Source: a virus. From it: a stretch of DNA of 64,000 nucleotides. Positions 15,550 to 28,927 of the stretch are shown here, piece by piece (within the stretch, counting starts at the first letter, position 1; each line of letters begins with the position of its first letter). Location: the IMG/VR virus record IMGVR_UViG_3300047472_000449; one strand, written 5' to 3'. The position numbers and the translations under genes are program-made. The notes beneath the pieces were generated by a model. It had not been told where the DNA came from. It worked only from the letters and a program-made list of their open reading frames with translations, and made no database searches.

Positions 15550-15589
15550 TGTCAATTGCATTGACCTTTGCGGGCTTTCCTGATATAAT
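15550..15589 (+). promoter_or_regulatory. nrdB promoter with TGTCA-N7-TGACC palindrome
   Basis: TTGACC 15561-66, 17 bp, TATAAT 15584-89. Confidence 0.8.
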
Positions 15590-15622: not shown

Positions 15623-16846
15623 ATGAGTGCTTTGAGCTGGGATGATGCCGATGAATCGAGTTCTGTGTCCGCCCCTGTGGTGAAGGCGCCAGCCGTGGAG
15701 GCGGAAGTTAATCCTGCCGTGGCGCTTCTGCGTCAACCTGATGCCGATGACAGTGACATGGTGAAGCGTGCCAAGGCAGAGCTTGACCGTCTCGACATCG
15801 CAGAAGGTCTGGCGGATCTGGAAGGCGCTGGCGTGCGAGTCAGTGTGGGTGAAAAGAGCATGATCAATGCTCGTGCCGACCTGAACCAGCTGGTGCCCAT
15901 GAAATACGACTGGGCATGGCAGAAGTATCTGGATGGCTGTGCCAACCACTGGATGCCGCAAGAGGTCAATATGACCGAAGACATCGCGCTGTGGCGCTCC
16001 GACAAGCTGAGCGAGGATGAGCGTCGCATCATCAAGCGCAGCCTGGGATTCTTCAGCACGGCTGACTCGCTGGTAGCGAACAATCTGGTACTGGCGGTGT
16101 ACCGCCTGATTACGAACCCGGAAGCGCGCCAGTACCTGTTGCGCCAAGCTTTTGAAGAGGCTATTCACACTCACGCGTACCAGTACTGCATTGAGTCGCT
16201 GAGCATGGATGAAGGCGAAATTTTCAACATGTACAAGGAGATCCCGACCGTTGCCAAGAAGGCTGCGTGGGGCATCAAGTTCACCAAAGGCATCTCTGAC
16301 CCAGGCTTCACCACTGGCACGCCGGAGACGGATCGCATGCTGCTGAAGAACCTGATTGCGTTCTACTGCGTGCTGGAAGGCATTTTCTTCTACTGCGGCT
16401 TTACTCAGATCCTGTCCATGGGTCGTCGCAATATGATGAAGGGCGTGGCAGAGCAGTTTCAGTACATCCTGCGCGATGAGTCGATGCACCTGAACTTCGG
16501 CATCGACGTAATCAACCAGATCAAGATCGAAAACCCGCATCTATGGGATCAGCAGATGCAGGATGAGGCGACAATGATGATCGTCCAGGGCACCCAGCTG
16601 GAAATCGAATACGCCCGTGACACCATGCCTCGTGGCGTGCTGGGCATGAATGCGCAGATGATGGAGGACTACCTCAAGTTCATCGCCAACCGCCGTCTGA
16701 ACCAAATCGGTTTGAAGGGCCAGTACCCGAGCAAGGAAAACCCGTTCCCGTGGATGAGCGAAGTGATGGATCTGAAGAAGGAAAAGAACTTTTTCGAGAC
16801 CCGAGTCATTGAATATCAAGCCGGTGTCGGCTTGACCTGGGACTGA
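15623..16846 (+). CDS. nrdB: Ribonucleoside-diphosphate reductase class Ia beta subunit
   Basis: [50 protein letters not shown]; Pseudomonas-type 'LSWD' N-terminus. Confidence 0.97.
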
Positions 16847-23745: not shown

Positions 23746-24456
23746 TCAAGACGCACGGGCAGATAAATGCGTTGTTAGTGCTTGGCGCGACAGTGCTTCC
23801 GGGGTGTTGAGCATCCATCGAGTGCCCTTGGCGTGGGCAAACCCCAGGCTGTGGTAGAACGCATCGACTTTAGCTGTTTCGGCGGTTAAATCATCGCCCC
23901 CTTCTTTCTGGAAATTCCCAAGGTATGGCACAGCCATCAGTACAACGTAAGCCACTTTACGTCGATAATGCCCTAATTTCTGTATGAGCATTGACCCAAT
24001 GCCCATTCTTTGAAATTTCTGTTCCACTGATACCCGATAAACGTACAGCATCCGCTTGGAAAAATCGTCTTCGCCGTACATGAGTTCAAATTTAGATGGC
24101 CGCTGGTAACCGAATTCGGCAGCCAACGTCCGAAATTGGCTCCTGTATATGCGCTGACGGGCTTGATAGCGATAGGCAAGGTCACTGGCATGGCTGCCAT
24201 AAGCAAAACAGCACAAGCTGTCCATCTCATCACTTACGTCAAAGACATCACCTACATCTTCCAGCGTGGCCCCAGGCCTGTAATAGGCTGAATTGATATC
24301 CAGCATGTAGGCCGTCAGCGTTCCGGCTAACTCATTGCCAGCCCAGGCAGTGACGGTGATGCGGCGCACATGCTGATTAATCGCTGTAAGGTCATCGACG
24401 CCTAATTTGGCTGGATGATTGGCAAGCTTCAGGGTAATGGAATTGCTGGCTAACAT
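23746..24456 (-). CDS. GNAT-family acetyltransferase
   Basis: VSVEQKFQRMGIGSMLI (motif A) and FYHSLGF. Confidence 0.75.
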   Translation of the reverse strand: MLASNSITLKLANHPAKLGVDDLTAINQHVRRITVTAWAGNELAGTLTAYMLDINSAYYRPGATLEDVGDVFDVSDEMDSLCCFAYGSHASDLAYRYQARQRIYRSQFRTLAAEFGYQRPSKFELMYGEDDFSKRMLYVYRVSVEQKFQRMGIGSMLIQKLGHYRRKVAYVVLMAVPYLGNFQKEGGDDLTAETAKVDAFYHSLGFAHAKGTRWMLNTPEALSRQALTTHLSARAS

Positions 24457-24666
24457 GCATGAGTGACCTGTGGGGGATTAAAAGCACAGGCATCGACAGT
24501 GCTCGCTGAGAAGCGCGAGCCCTAAGGTGCCCAGCCGGTTGGGTGTCTCCCTTCACAACCTATAGTTTATTCGATTTTATGTCAACGAGGCAGCATTTCC
24601 GATTGACAAACGGTATGCTTTTGCCTATAATATCTATCATTCAAGCATCAAGCCTAATCACTCAAC

Positions 24667-25080
24667 GTGAGATCTCCTGTGAGTAATCAAGACGCCAGCG
24701 TCAATCCAGAGCTACCGTTCTGTTATGCCTATCGTTTCGATGATCACCATGCCGATGGCACGATCCCCAATATTCTGGCGTTTCGTGAAGGTCGCGACTG
24801 GGAGTCTCGACCGTACCCGGATGCGCGTGAGGTTCGGCCTCTTTTTACGCGCTCTGAGTCGGAAGAAATCGCCGCACTGAAAGCTGAGCTGGCTGAAGCC
24901 AAGCAGCGCATCGCGGTTGTTGAGCATGTCGCTATGGAATTTCTCGGTACGGTCGGTGAATACCAAGCCATGCCATGTCAGAGCCTGCAAGACCGCATGT
25001 TTGCGACCATCCGCCGCTATCGTTCCCGCGTCGTTGATTACCAGCCCGGCGATTACGCCAAGCTCGATCAAGACCAATAA
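24667..25080 (+). CDS. Phage-type hypothetical protein with coiled coil
   Basis: Follows promoter TTGACA 24603, TATAAT 24626. Confidence 0.6.
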   Translation: MRSPVSNQDASVNPELPFCYAYRFDDHHADGTIPNILAFREGRDWESRPYPDAREVRPLFTRSESEEIAALKAELAEAKQRIAVVEHVAMEFLGTVGEYQAMPCQSLQDRMFATIRRYRSRVVDYQPGDYAKLDQDQ

Positions 25081-25148
25081 ACACTGCTGCGCGGCGTCTG
25101 CATGGCGCCGCCCTCCTCCTTCCGGCCATTTCCTTTTTGAGGTTGTCC

Positions 25149-25574
25149 ATGAATCAAGTTACCTTCCTGCCAAAAGATGTTGCGTCTGCGCTGACCGTCC
25201 CGACCAACATGATTTCGATCAACTCGCCAAACAGCTACACCCAGTTCGCCTGCGAGCACAAGCGTTTGCTGGTGTTGTCGTTTTATCCAAACGACTTCGG
25301 TGACCTGACCCACAACATCCCGACCGAGGAAACCGCAAAGGAAATCATCGATTTCATCGAAAGCTGCAACGGTGAAGACGTGGTGGTGCATTGCGGTGAG
25401 GGCAGCATCCGTTCGTCGGCGGTGGCACTGTTCATGGAGCGCGACATGGACTATGAACTCGACACCGAGTTCAAGGGTTGCAAAGGCTCGACAGCCAACC
25501 GCAGCCGTAACCTGTACATGTTGCTGCGTCGTGAACACGCCGCACGTCACCCACGCCTACCACACGGCGAGTAA
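25149..25574 (+). CDS. Protein-tyrosine/dual-specificity phosphatase-like protein
   Basis: VVVHCGEGSIRSSAVA is an HCX5R P-loop. Confidence 0.8.
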   Translation: MNQVTFLPKDVASALTVPTNMISINSPNSYTQFACEHKRLLVLSFYPNDFGDLTHNIPTEETAKEIIDFIESCNGEDVVVHCGEGSIRSSAVALFMERDMDYELDTEFKGCKGSTANRSRNLYMLLRREHAARHPRLPHGE

Positions 25575-25660
25575 GCCCCCTTCTGCCTCCAGGCTGTCGG
25601 ATGACATTCCGCCACTTGGGGGCTATCATCCAGCCCCTCTTTACCGGCCAGGACTCTGAC

Positions 25661-25867
25661 ATGGATAACCAGTTGATTAGCGAATACCTTGCGGCATTCA
25701 AGGCAGCCAATCCTGGGGTGGCTCAGTTGCCGACTTTCAGCTATGCCGCAGGCTGGTACACCATCCATACGACCCAGGGTGGTTCAACCAAGAAGCGCGC
25801 AGCACAAATTATCGCCATGCGCGACACCTTGCTTAAACGTGTGGCAGGTACGCAATTGCCCAGCTGA
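25661..25867 (+). CDS. Small hypothetical protein
   Basis: AGGA RBS. Confidence 0.6.
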   Translation: MDNQLISEYLAAFKAANPGVAQLPTFSYAAGWYTIHTTQGGSTKKRAAQIIAMRDTLLKRVAGTQLPS

Positions 25868-25997
25868 GCGAGTGCAAAATAGGGCTTGCCGCTCATCGAT
25901 ACGCCGTCAGCATGATTGACATTGCTGGCTGACTTGAGTATACTTTAAATTATCAGGTCACCCTTCTCGACCGATCCATCACAGAGGATTCTCCCCC

Positions 25998-26156
25998 ATG
26001 AGCCAGACTCAAGAAAAACCATCCCAATCACAAGAACTCGCCTTGGGCGTCATGAATGATGACGAAGACGACTTCCTGCTCGGTGCGGACGGTGAGGCAC
26101 CGCAAGCCTGCCCCCTCGATCCAGAAGGTAAGGGCCAATGTGAATCGTGTCAGTGA
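25998..26156 (+). CDS. 52-aa acidic peptide ending ACPLDPEGKGQCESCQ (resembles NrdA C-terminal tail)
   Basis: Translated by hand; own promoter (TTGACA 25916, TATACT 25939) and AGAGGA RBS. Confidence 0.7.
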   Translation: MSQTQEKPSQSQELALGVMNDDEDDFLLGADGEAPQACPLDPEGKGQCESCQ

Positions 26157-26178
26157 CATTGACATTGACATTGACATT
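26155..26178 (+). repeat. (GACATT)4 tandem repeat containing stacked TTGACA hexamers
   Basis: Read directly from the sequence. Confidence 0.9.
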
Positions 26179-26438
26179 GTATAACATTTAGTGGCATGAA
26201 GTGATCGCGAGGCACCTGCCTTGCGATTAATCAAACTGTTTCACCGTCCGTTGGAGTGAATTATGAGCGACATGACCGATTGCCTTGACTACGGCATCAC
26301 CGAATCCGTGGTTTCGGATCACGCGTCTGAGCAGCTGGGCACGATTTTGACGGTTGTCACTGTCATCATTATGGGTCTCGTTTGCCTGCCATTCCCTGGC
26401 TAAATCATGCCAGACGACACCCACAAGATTGAATCCCT

Positions 26439-26684
26439 ATGAAATACGACCAAATGACGCTCAGCGAGCTTGAGCGAGCCGCAGCGATCTCTGACAACCC
26501 GCTGGCCAAAGCATTGGCTGCGAGGCTTGAGGAGGTGGTGGACGCACTTGAGTACGCGTTGGTGGTGGACACCGACAAAGAGCGGCTTGAGGAAATCTCG
26601 GCCCTTTATGTGCTGCTGGATCTCTCCAAAGAGGCGCCAAAGCTGCTGACCGAAGAGTGTAAGCAGAGCGAAGAGGCGGCATAG
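26439..26684 (+). CDS. Small hypothetical protein
   Basis: 81 aa helical ORF. Confidence 0.6.
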   Translation: MKYDQMTLSELERAAAISDNPLAKALAARLEEVVDALEYALVVDTDKERLEEISALYVLLDLSKEAPKLLTEECKQSEEAA

Positions 26685-26765
26685 ACGCCCGCTGGCCAGC
26701 TTCACGGAACGTGGTTAAGTGCTACCCAGGTAGATACACCATCACCCTACTAAACAAGGATTTCC

Positions 26766-27218
26766 ATGAGTAATATATCGAACGGCGCAAAGGCTCTCCT
26801 GCTGTCGAGCGTTTTGCTTATTTTCGTCAATTGCCCATTGATGATTTATTTTTACTTTGAGTCTGATCTTGCTTTTTCAACATTGACCATGTGGCAGGTG
26901 TTCTTTCGGACATCGTTTGTTTTCTTGGTTTTTTTGGCTGGGTTGTTTCTGATGCTAAGTGGCTTGATTCGCCTTTCCGAAGAGGGCGCGCTGCACATGC
27001 CAATGCAGGCGAAAGTCCCTTTGGTGTTCGTTTACGCGTTGAACATGCTCGGTCTTCTCGGCGGGGTGTTTGCAATCATGTATGTGGATTCACCATCCCT
27101 GCGCGTACTGGCATTTACGCTGTGTTGTGCGCTGGGCTTGCTCGGCGGGATGTGGATCGGCGGGGTAAAATTGATTACAAAACCATTGGTGGGTATCGAT
27201 TCGGCTACTGAATCTTAA
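26766..27218 (+). CDS. Multi-pass membrane protein
   Basis: Four hydrophobic segments; AAGGA RBS. Confidence 0.7.
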   Translation: MSNISNGAKALLLSSVLLIFVNCPLMIYFYFESDLAFSTLTMWQVFFRTSFVFLVFLAGLFLMLSGLIRLSEEGALHMPMQAKVPLVFVYALNMLGLLGGVFAIMYVDSPSLRVLAFTLCCALGLLGGMWIGGVKLITKPLVGIDSATES

Positions 27219-27227
27219 AGGAAAAAA

Positions 27228-27470
27228 ATGTCGCTTTTTACTATTGTTTCTACTGTGCTCGTGTTGTCGTCTTCGCCAAGTGGGAGTGCTGTCACTCAAA
27301 CATCGTACCCCGTGGATGAGCTTAGTTGTGCCGATGCAGTGGCCAAGATCTGGGGCTACAGTGCTGTTTTGGAGAATGGCAAAGCCACAAAGAAGGAGAA
27401 GATTGATAACAATGGTACTTTCACTGTGATTAGTACCCTGGAATGTGTTCCGCGACCCGCTGGTGTATAA
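27228..27470 (+). CDS. Small secreted protein
   Basis: Signal-like N-terminus, two Cys; AAAGGA RBS. Confidence 0.6.
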   Translation: MSLFTIVSTVLVLSSSPSGSAVTQTSYPVDELSCADAVAKIWGYSAVLENGKATKKEKIDNNGTFTVISTLECVPRPAGV

Positions 27471-27544
27471 ACTGCAATGGCGGTTCGGTGTCGTACATGC
27501 AGCAATGGTGTAAAATCGATAAAAAGACTAAAAGGGAGAGCCAA

Positions 27545-27700
27545 ATGAAACCATACGGAGCAAAGCGTCATTTCGGACGCTGCCAGACCTCTCGCCCAAA
27601 AAGCGGCGGTAAAATCCACGTGTCGTTGCACACAAAAAACCACAAGTTCGGGCGCATGTGGTCGCCGGACATGGATAACGCCTTCTGCTTGGAGGCGTAA
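27545..27700 (+). CDS. Small basic protein
   Basis: GGGAG RBS before MKPYGAK. Confidence 0.45.
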   Translation: MKPYGAKRHFGRCQTSRPKSGGKIHVSLHTKNHKFGRMWSPDMDNAFCLEA

Positions 27701-27816
27701 TATTCATTGCAATGTCAGCAGGATTGACACGCCACTGTCTTTCGGATATACTATCGCCATTAGCCCACAATCCTTCTTATTGGCAATCTTGCGAGTAAGG
27801 TACTGGACAACACCTC

Positions 27817-28308
27817 ATGAAAGATAAGCGCATTCAACTACCTGTAACGCTGAGAGAGCTAGGCGATAACGCCTTTCCAGAAAATGTTCTGGCTCAGAAT
27901 GTCCGTGTGGGTGTTGCGGTGATCATCCGCAATGAACACGATGAAATTTTGGTCGGTCGCCGTCAGGGCAGTCATGGCGCAGGGACATGGACGGTTCCAG
28001 GCGGGCATTTGGAATTTGGCGAATTCCCTGAGGTCTGTGCCTTTCGCGAGGTATGGGAGGAAACTGGTCTTTTGCTGAAAGCGGTCTCTAGGCCCTTTGC
28101 GTCCACCAACGACATTTTTATCGAAGAGCAAAAACACTACATCACGCTCTGGGTTGAGGGGGTTATTGAACAAGGTGCCATTCCCCGGAATATGGAGCCT
28201 GAAAAGTGCGATGGGTGGGAGTGGTTTGCTGGACGTGATATTCCAGAGCCACGTTTCCTGGGTTTGAAGAACCTAATGGCTCAGCACCCTGCGTTCCAGT
28301 ACACGTAG
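27817..28308 (+). CDS. Nudix hydrolase (NUDT15/MTH2-like)
   Basis: PGGHLEFGE...CAFREVWEETGL Nudix box; EPEKCDGWEWF. Confidence 0.9.
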   Translation: MKDKRIQLPVTLRELGDNAFPENVLAQNVRVGVAVIIRNEHDEILVGRRQGSHGAGTWTVPGGHLEFGEFPEVCAFREVWEETGLLLKAVSRPFASTNDIFIEEQKHYITLWVEGVIEQGAIPRNMEPEKCDGWEWFAGRDIPEPRFLGLKNLMAQHPAFQYT

Positions 28309-28345
28309 TCTCTTAACCTGTCTCCTTCAGTCAAGGCGAGTCAAC

Positions 28346-28927
28346 ATGAGTCACGACACCGAAATTGTTGAACATAAACACCCCCTCAAGACGCAAACTA
28401 TCGCCTCGCTGATCCGTCACCACACCAGCAACGATGGAGAGGCCGGTCACAGTGTCCTGCATTTTCGTGATCGCCAATTTCTGATGCCTATCGAAGGATC
28501 AGGCAACCCGGATTTGCTCATTGCTTTGGAGCGTATTAGGACGGAATTGGATCGTGGTAAACGAGACTTCGCGCTGAGCATGGTGCCCTTTCAATCGCTT
28601 CATAGCAACACGAGCTTGGATATGTACGAGCGTGTTGAGATTCCGGATTTCGACTCCATTTTTACGGGGATTATCGCGAGTCTTAAGCAATCACATGATC
28701 TTACGGGCAATTATGCCCTCTCCATCAGCATGCGCTACCAGCAATCGCTCAGCCTTCATGGTCGCAGCCTGGATGTTCCCGTGCGCAATCAATTGGACTT
28801 TTACGTTTGCCCTTCTGCTTTCACGATCAATCTTGCAGATGTGCTTGACGTGACTCAGGTCGAAATGCTGAATCGCTGGTACGCCGGTATGTTCTCAGGC
28901 GAGATTTCGACGAGTGCCAGAATGTGA
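28346..28927 (+). CDS. Hypothetical protein
   Basis: 193 aa ORF downstream of the Nudix gene. Confidence 0.65.
   Translation: MSHDTEIVEHKHPLKTQTIASLIRHHTSNDGEAGHSVLHFRDRQFLMPIEGSGNPDLLIALERIRTELDRGKRDFALSMVPFQSLHSNTSLDMYERVEIPDFDSIFTGIIASLKQSHDLTGNYALSISMRYQQSLSLHGRSLDVPVRNQLDFYVCPSAFTINLADVLDVTQVEMLNRWYAGMFSGEISTSARM

Follow-up and report, generated by a model that had tools for sequence, protein, structure and literature searches.

Can the redox tail of a class Ia ribonucleotide reductase (RNR) be encoded as a small protein of its own, apart from the catalytic subunit NrdA? This question is raised by an open reading frame (ORF) of IMG/VR virus record IMGVR_UViG_3300047472_000449, of which a stretch of 64,000 nucleotides, here called the window, was analyzed. 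The ORF specifies a peptide of 52 amino acids (aa) with an acidic N-terminal half and the C-terminus ...ACPLDPEGKGQCESCQ-stop. In class I enzymes, the Cys pair in the tail of the alpha subunit is reduced by thioredoxin or glutaredoxin and then re-reduces the active-site disulfide (PMC9669993, PMC4520616). The class I consensus includes a C-terminal CxxC, and the alpha tail is disordered (PMC9669993). Because this tail is both disordered and tethered, the way in which it reaches the active site and delivers electrons is among the least well-resolved steps of the RNR cycle. The comparisons described below support the view that the peptide is homologous to the C-terminal redox tail of class Ia NrdA but detached from it; it is not part of an NrdA, as its ORF stands alone, has a promoter of its own, and lies in a window that carries no nrdA. 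Because of this homology, its most likely function appears to be that of a shuttle that serves class Ia RNR in trans by thiol-disulfide exchange, and this is the interpretation towards which we lean.

Judging from its conservation, the ORF is a genuine, independent gene; it is neither a frame left open by chance nor a remnant, because the peptide belongs to a conserved family with low ratios of nonsynonymous to synonymous substitution (dN/dS) and several unrelated gene neighborhoods. Profile searches yielded about 30 small proteins of 46 to 60 aa, and the window protein matched the family profile with an E value of 1.6e-18. Its exact sequence is present in the protein collection, recorded on a contig of 1.14 Mb, as is a second 52-aa protein with 81% identity; the closest relatives are P0002, P0020, P0023, and P0025. 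The family is defined by its length, an acidic N-terminal half with D-F-L, and a C-terminal part of the form G-E-A-P-x-A-C ... C-x-[AS]-C-[QS], and the window peptide fits this definition. Down to about 41% identity, the invariant positions are the start Met, an Asp, the A-C pair, and two more Cys. E-x-D-F-L and P-x-A-C-P-x-x-P are nearly invariant; in the D-F-L region, the Asp is invariant and E, F, and L are each found in at least 90% of the members. The stop codon directly follows C-x-[AS]-C-[QS] in most members; the diverged relatives retain the reading frame and the three Cys, and nearly all of them also the position of the stop. The initial annotation, which was made from the DNA letters alone, had described an acidic peptide ending in CxxCQ and had named a lack of conservation of this motif among homologs as an argument against its reading; the translation indeed ends in C-E-S-C-Q-stop, and CxxC-Q is conserved in the family alignments.

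The family is under purifying selection, with dN/dS values of 0.02 to 0.28 (Nei-Gojobori method, nine relatives with DNA) and saturated synonymous sites between distant pairs. A functionless, decaying remnant of the 3' end of nrdA would also account for a peptide that derives from nrdA in a window without this gene. Such a remnant is disfavored to the point of being hardly credible, given these substitution rates, the near-consensus promoter and ribosome site of the gene, its conservation in at least three different, unrelated neighborhoods, and its proper start codon, which opens an N-terminal segment absent from NrdA tails. The 52-aa ORF with its own promoter and ribosome-binding site, as claimed in the initial annotation, was recovered at the positions given in the table. 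The start coordinate of that annotation, 25905, belongs to a one-mismatch copy of a palindrome that overlaps the -35 box; the ATG of the peptide lies at 25998. Origin by a simple in-frame deletion of an adjacent nrdA was considered and rejected, as the peptide gene lies downstream of nrdB and starts with the segment that NrdA lacks.

The family was previously unnamed and sits on large Pseudomonas-type mobile elements. Neither Pfam (E <= 0.1) nor PHROGs assigned the peptide to a family, the ESM Atlas held only unnamed small clusters, and no gene for a modifying enzyme is conserved beside the peptide gene. A search for loci in genome, viral, and metagenome collections found nothing with the two closest sequences and nine loci with the wider family alignment. 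At three metagenome loci (L006 to L008), the peptide gene does not adjoin nrdB, which is absent from the DNA examined there. A likeness to a loop of NH3-dependent NAD synthetase (residues 213 to 242 of PDB 1ee1 versus peptide residues 5 to 34, E value of 0.05, phmmer against PDB) was judged to be due to chance, because it lies outside the conserved core of the peptide. The window derives from a rhizosphere metagenome, and the stretch with the peptide gene was detected in rhizosphere and soil metagenomes; no RNA runs were among the sequencing runs listed as containing it, and the contigs from four metagenome runs were near-identical and held no informative variants in the ORF.

The homology to NrdA was assessed by targeted comparisons. 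The ending of Pseudomonas-type NrdA that the initial annotation had given proved to be correct for Pseudomonas aeruginosa NrdA (PDB 5im3, ...PVPQACSIDNPDCEACQ) and for 27 Pseudomonadales NrdAs from whole genomes, which end in APVPxACS[IL]D[DN]PDCEACQ and in which A, C, P, C, E, A, C, and Q do not vary; an Acinetobacter NrdA ends in ...EEDGFTQAAPVPMACSIDNPDCEACQ. The alignment of the peptide profile with these 27 NrdA tails by hhalign (probability of 94.8%, E value of 5.1e-8) joins both C-termini over 19 aligned columns with one 3-residue gap. In BLASTP, the window peptide scored an E value of 0.003 against an Acinetobacter NrdA tail, and the family member P0030 one of 1e-6 against an NrdA tail. 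The real profile score was reached by 7 of 5,000 and 22 of 5,000 composition-preserving shuffles of two NrdA tails. In a six-frame search of 61 Pseudomonadales genomes, the peptide profile retrieved one free peptide and, in two genomes, the 3' end of nrdA, at matching coordinates; there were no other hits. In some family members, the C-terminus is almost identical to the NrdA tail, e.g., ...VPKACSLDNPDCEACQ, and the acidic D-F-L is paralleled by a [DE]-[DE]-G-F that several full-length NrdA tails have in their linker. The third conserved Cys is found in P-Q-A-C of the window peptide, but it is separated from the CxxC by nine residues, compared with six in NrdA and in P0030 and five to six in members encoded beside a tail-less nrdA. 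The stand-alone, NrdA-tail-like peptide that had been proposed from the letters thus has support from the hhalign and BLASTP matches and from NrdA C-termini being the only other matches in the genomes.

A further line of evidence comes from megaplasmids. A search with the window NrdB led to four Pseudomonas megaplasmids of 0.9 to 1.17 Mb, namely, pMPPla107, pBASL58, pPL1, and the FeN3W plasmid (CP136011.1), each of which encodes one NrdA that ends in ...TGxLNAVSA[Q] or, in pPL1, in ...NAVKTV. The stop is located at the junction of the conserved body and the tail linker, and no tail follows 3' of it in any frame in any of the four. Tailed NrdAs have 390 invariant columns, of which these NrdAs retain 357 to 365; their losses are essentially the eight tail columns. 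All four megaplasmids have a free tail gene (E values of 0.03 to 2.7e-7) with C-x5/6-C-x2-C spacing, which shares the strand of nrdB and lies 13 to 30 kb downstream of it. The nrdB gene is about 95 to 120 kb away from nrdA. In pPL1, the free tail and nrdA are about 141 kb apart around the circle, compared with 110 to 130 kb in pMPPla107, pBASL58, and the FeN3W plasmid. The absence of the tail from NrdA together with a separate tail gene is, as far as the sequences can tell, the pattern predicted by nrdA fission. The initial annotation had proposed looking for an nrdA without its tail, which is exactly what these four related plasmids of about 1 Mb contain, and its notion of a split nrdA or a tail acting in trans gains support from them. 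A ribonucleoside-diphosphate reductase was listed by Smith et al. among the nucleotide-supply genes of pMPPla107 and pBASL58, where the split is unmentioned (PMC6482414).

Some features of individual replicons may be added. The FeN3W plasmid encodes an annotated thioredoxin domain-containing protein (CP136011.1, L055, positions 319 to 999) 2 kb upstream of its orphan nrdB, possibly a dedicated reductant of the split RNR of this plasmid. The 847-kb P. aeruginosa plasmid NZ_CP131792.1 (L048) carries a full-length nrdA-nrdB of the chromosomal type, which adjoins transposase and pyocin S6-type immunity genes, and gave no match in tblastn with either type of peptide, i.e., with nine or with five to six residues between the first two Cys. 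Both types also had no tblastn match among phages. The record CAKLQF020000011.1 (L001, "Acinetobacter phage MD-2021a") carries rstAB, nrdA, nrdB, and a LysR regulator and looks like an Acinetobacter chromosomal contig rather than a phage.

A second type of arrangement lacks nrdA altogether. At eight loci, the peptide gene follows nrdB after 50 bp; four of them are complete Pseudomonas plasmids of 317 to 483 kb (CP018048, CP096823, CP093017, and pKF715A), none of which carries nrdA, and the other four are contigs, including scaffold 6 of Pseudomonas sp. HS-2. The chromosome of strain HS-2 has a normal nrdA-nrdB pair, and its NrdA tail is intact. The peptides that adjoin an orphan nrdB show C-x9-C-x2-C spacing. 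An association with RNR loci, whose absence would have spoken against the initial annotation, is hence evident from nrdB immediately upstream of the peptide gene. The same proximity, which includes plasmids without nrdA, would fit a helper of NrdB, in which an acidic peptide with three Cys and many carboxylates brings metal or electrons for the assembly or repair of the di-iron tyrosyl cofactor; most members moreover start with a motif resembling the N-terminus of NrdB, ML[SD]W[DN]. We consider such a helper improbable, because the homology of the conserved segment is to the NrdA tail and not to a ferredoxin, with no match in Pfam, because it would leave unexplained why the NrdAs of the megaplasmids lack precisely this segment, and because the gene does not adjoin nrdB in the window and at the three metagenome loci.

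As a trans-acting shuttle, the redox tail of class Ia NrdA would be made separately, as a 52-residue acidic peptide expressed from its own strong promoter. The peptide would dock on the NrdA body via its acidic D-F-L segment, a candidate docking element that would replace the lost covalent tether. The C-terminal C-x2-C and the third Cys upstream of it would then, by homology, exchange disulfides with the Cys pair of the active site, and the oxidized peptide would be re-reduced by the thioredoxin or glutaredoxin system of the host. The NrdA body served in this way could be a tail-less NrdA elsewhere on the element, as in the pMPPla107-type megaplasmids, or else the NrdA of the host, and the peptide would work together with the NrdB of the element itself.

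Several observations weigh against this interpretation. The homology is one of targeted comparisons of a short segment, because generic searches miss NrdA: phmmer with the peptide over 1.84 billion representative proteins retrieved small family members and no NrdA, the family profile did not retrieve 5im3 from PDB, and among longer proteins the profile found nothing at E <= 10, neither an NrdA nor a fused form. Such misses are expected because the matched segment comprises about 20 residues. The shortness of this segment, with its 19 aligned columns, and the failure of generic searches to reach NrdA would also suit an unrelated small Cys peptide, either a metal-binding peptide or the precursor of a modified one, whose likeness to the NrdA tail arose by convergence. 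This explanation is much less economical and very improbable, since it conflicts with the near letter-for-letter tails of some members, with a likeness that extends to the upstream acidic [DE]-G-F/D-F-L motif, and with the lack of conserved modifying-enzyme genes, and since the links to nrdB and to a tail-less nrdA would have to be coincidental.

The binding of the peptide to NrdA received weak support from complex prediction. The NrdA body of strain HS-2 (residues 30 to 925, tail removed) and the HS-2 plasmid peptide scored 0.48, compared with 0.00 for the best control, which was rated as "weak support." Among reference pairs, 58 of 80 solved complexes and 2 of 110 mismatched ones attained this mark, but at scores of <=0.60 only 7 of the 80 solved complexes and both mismatches that passed did so; these counts apply only roughly, as the prediction was made with our own alignments. 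The runs agreed in at least 65% of the contacts, the partner had predicted local distance difference test (pLDDT) values of 51 to 61, and no interface was reported.

The window itself, moreover, combines features of both arrangements. The spacing of nine residues in its peptide is the type found on nrdA-less plasmids and not the type with five to six residues that accompanies a tail-less nrdA, and tblastn with Acinetobacter NrdA found no nrdA within the 64 kb. This agrees with the initial annotation, which had noted an nrdB (confirmed by its Pfam match) and no nrdA. Two large window proteins have no relatives on five megaplasmids, so that membership in the pMPPla107 family is conjectural, and a local comparison of ORFs between the window and the megaplasmid loci revealed nothing in common except nrdB. 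The layout is nevertheless like that of the megaplasmids, with nrdB and the peptide gene 9.2 kb apart on the same strand, an operator-bearing promoter of its own, and a contig of about 1.1 Mb. The N-terminus of the window peptide, MS-x-T-x-x-K-P, matches that of P0030, the member with the canonical spacing of six residues.

Finally, on nrdA-less plasmids, and possibly in the element of the window, the target of the free tail has to be a host NrdA, which comes with a tail; for this reason a free one is not obviously needed on these plasmids, and it could equally compete. The main rival of the shuttle is therefore a competitor or decoy that occupies the entrance for the tail or to the active site on the host NrdA or else sequesters thioredoxin or glutaredoxin, and thereby damps or rewires the synthesis of deoxynucleoside triphosphates (dNTPs). 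The four complete plasmids without nrdA fit this idea, as a second tail would compete with the intact one of the host, and so would the diverged tail of the window type, whose 3-residue insertion between the Cys may reflect a loss of shuttle function. The weak complex prediction fits equally well. Precedents would be the yeast inhibitor Sml1 and the toxic C-terminal domain of Neurospora UN-24. When supplied in trans in yeast, a C-terminal fragment of an RNR large subunit is harmful, and its complex with Rnr1p is non-reducible (PMC3618301). We nonetheless regard a competing, inhibitory peptide as unlikely: it accompanies an intact nrdB, which suggests more rather than less RNR activity; all four plasmids with a tail-less nrdA have a free tail, which is the pattern of a needed part; and a working redox tail would be expected to retain the three Cys and their place at the very C-terminus, as is the case.

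The regulation of the tail gene adds a further aspect to the proposed shuttle. The palindrome TGTCA-N7-TGACA, with at most one mismatch, occurs in 25 copies in the window, compared with 2.6 expected (sites include 5311, 15550, 17201, 25905, 26148, 27713, 28981, and 32253). Most copies overlap a TTGACA -35 box, including those in the promoters of nrdB, where the palindrome occupies positions 15550 to 15566, and of the tail peptide. In the region of the peptide gene, two sigma-70-type promoter sites like that of the peptide gene were observed versus 0.7 expected. The palindrome looks like an element-wide operator for a putative repressor. A broader and more tentative idea, which we hold to be possible albeit rather doubtful, is that the class Ia redox tail has become a diffusible, separately regulated subunit and, with it, an operator-controlled switch by which a giant mobile element turns RNR turnover on or off while leaving the catalytic subunits alone, and that "NrdB plus tail" is a module that plugs into the host NrdA and controls the dNTP synthesis of the host even if the plasmid has lost nrdA.

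Downstream of the peptide gene, a run of GACATT hexamers starts within its last codons and supplies the operator and the -35 box of the following promoter (TTGACA-17-TAACAT). Because there is no terminator between the peptide stop and this promoter, the peptide transcript may continue into the next small genes. A downstream gene at 26263 to 26403 encodes a membrane-like peptide of 46 aa. The copy number of GACATT varies among the rhizosphere runs, with gaps of 6 and 12 bases in their contigs, and such a polymorphism would be predicted to shift the register of operator and -35 box for the 46-aa peptide gene.

Table. Positions of the tail peptide gene, nrdB, and associated control elements in the window
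Feature	Positions	Strand	Basis
nrdB promoter: palindrome TGTCAATTGCATTGACC, -35 TTGACC, 17-nucleotide (nt) spacer, -10 TATAAT	15550-15589	+	
nrdB, class Ia RNR beta subunit, 407 aa	15623-16846	+	PF00268, E value of 2e-93
Operator-like palindrome CGTCA-N7-TGACA, one mismatch, overlapping the -35 box of the peptide gene	25905-25921	+	
Sigma-70-type promoter of the peptide gene, TTGACA-17-TATACT	25916-25944	+	11/12 consensus matches
Shine-Dalgarno sequence GAGGA, 9 nt 5' of the peptide ATG	25984-25988	+	Sequence reading
Peptide coding sequence, 52 aa, ATG start, stop included	25998-26156	+	ORF reading, translation
Codons 23-27, E-D-D-F-L, near-invariant acidic D-F-L motif, candidate docking element	26064-26078	+	Family alignments
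Codons 33-52, EAPQAC-x9-C-E-S-C-Q, NrdA redox tail homologue with three invariant Cys	26094-26153	+	hhalign, BLASTP
Run of GACATT hexamers and next promoter/operator, starting in the last codons of the peptide	26143-26187	+	

With respect to the partner subunit, the window nrdB is, from its translation, catalytically intact: the iron ligands, the radical Tyr, the C-terminal Tyr, and the tail Y-Q...L-T-W-D are kept. The protein is 68% identical over its full length to Acinetobacter NrdB and 81 to 84% identical to the NrdB of the Pseudomonas chromosomal type and of the megaplasmids. No second copy of the peptide gene is present directly after the window nrdB. NrdBs of this clade start with ML[SDN]W[DEN] and end in ...GGAL[ST]WD-stop (window positions 15623 to 15640 and 16826 to 16843; also L002, L049, and L054 to L056). 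Most free tail peptides have an NrdB-like [LIFM]-x-W-[DEN] near the N-terminus, with Q or M instead in the window subfamily, and the common W motif may be a docking motif for NrdA that is shared by NrdB and free tails.

The remaining Pfam content of the window comprises parts of toxin-antitoxin systems, a NUDIX protein, an R2K ATP-grasp protein, and an AlkB-like oxygenase; neither a thioredoxin nor a glutaredoxin was found by Pfam among the window proteins. Close to the peptide gene, an ORF at 25137 to 25574 weakly resembles a dual-specificity phosphatase (Pfam E value of 5e-4, under the family cut-off), and a GNAT acetyltransferase is encoded on the opposite strand at 23746 to 24456. None of the window neighbors of the peptide gene recurs beside it at other loci, and megablast of positions 24000 to 28500 against phages and plasmids gave no match.

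A natural, separate tail of 50 residues would make the tail step of the RNR cycle directly testable. It would also show that megaplasmids reshuffle housekeeping enzymes at the subdomain level and would explain what a set of proteins listed as "hypothetical" in RefSeq does on Pseudomonas megaplasmids, some of them from clinical P. aeruginosa isolates. If the tail acts on the host enzyme as well, this would be a novel means by which a mobile element adjusts the nucleotide supply of its host. Literature searches yielded no description of a detached tail of a class I RNR.

The free peptide resembles the Pseudomonadales NrdA tail in its disordered, acidic, Ala- and Pro-rich linker, in P-x-A-C ... 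C-E-[AS]-C-Q at the extreme C-terminus, and in three invariant Cys. It differs in being detached from NrdA as the product of its own gene and promoter, in its extra N-terminal segment, and, in the window subfamily, in the nine rather than six residues between the first two Cys. In Escherichia coli, nrdB is followed by the gene for YfaE, a small [2Fe-2S] ferredoxin, which an NrdB helper would parallel; in both cases, the gene that comes directly after nrdB specifies a small protein with Cys. Unlike YfaE, the free tail has no match to a ferredoxin family in Pfam, three Cys instead of four, and homology to the NrdA tail. The yeast protein Sml1 is an inhibitor of RNR that acts in trans. Together with the PA incompatibility domain of Neurospora UN-24 (PMC3618301), it shares with the free tail the principle of a small or fragmentary protein acting in trans at the C-terminal region of the large subunit. 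Sml1 and UN-24 are eukaryotic and inhibitory or toxic, and they are set apart from the free tail by context; the intact nrdB and the tail-less nrdA of related elements point to supply rather than inhibition. In Facklamia ignava, a glutaredoxin domain is reported to be fused to NrdB (PMC6187632). A component for the delivery of electrons to a class I RNR has in both cases been moved to or beside the beta subunit, here as a tail gene 50 bp after nrdB at eight loci. The F. ignava arrangement is the fusion of a folded glutaredoxin, whereas the free tail would have arisen by fission of the alpha tail and has no glutaredoxin fold.

The closest parallel is provided by the split class II enzymes, in which the second subunit, NrdJb, is a protein of about 25 kDa. 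In gammaproteobacteria, the catalytic machinery of these enzymes resides in NrdJa, the role of NrdJb is thiol-disulfide exchange, and both are encoded in one operon, nrdJab (PMC4520616). As in NrdJa/NrdJb, the catalytic body and the Cys-bearing exchange part are found on separate polypeptides, and the body alone is without a redox tail. The differences are that the enzyme belongs to class I, that the tail has 46 to 60 aa, that its gene lies about 100 kb or more from nrdA in the megaplasmids and forms no operon with it, and that free tails are also found on plasmids without any nrdA. By analogy, the free tail system is best read as the class I counterpart of the split class II NrdJa/NrdJb, and it would extend the concept of a split RNR from class II to class I.

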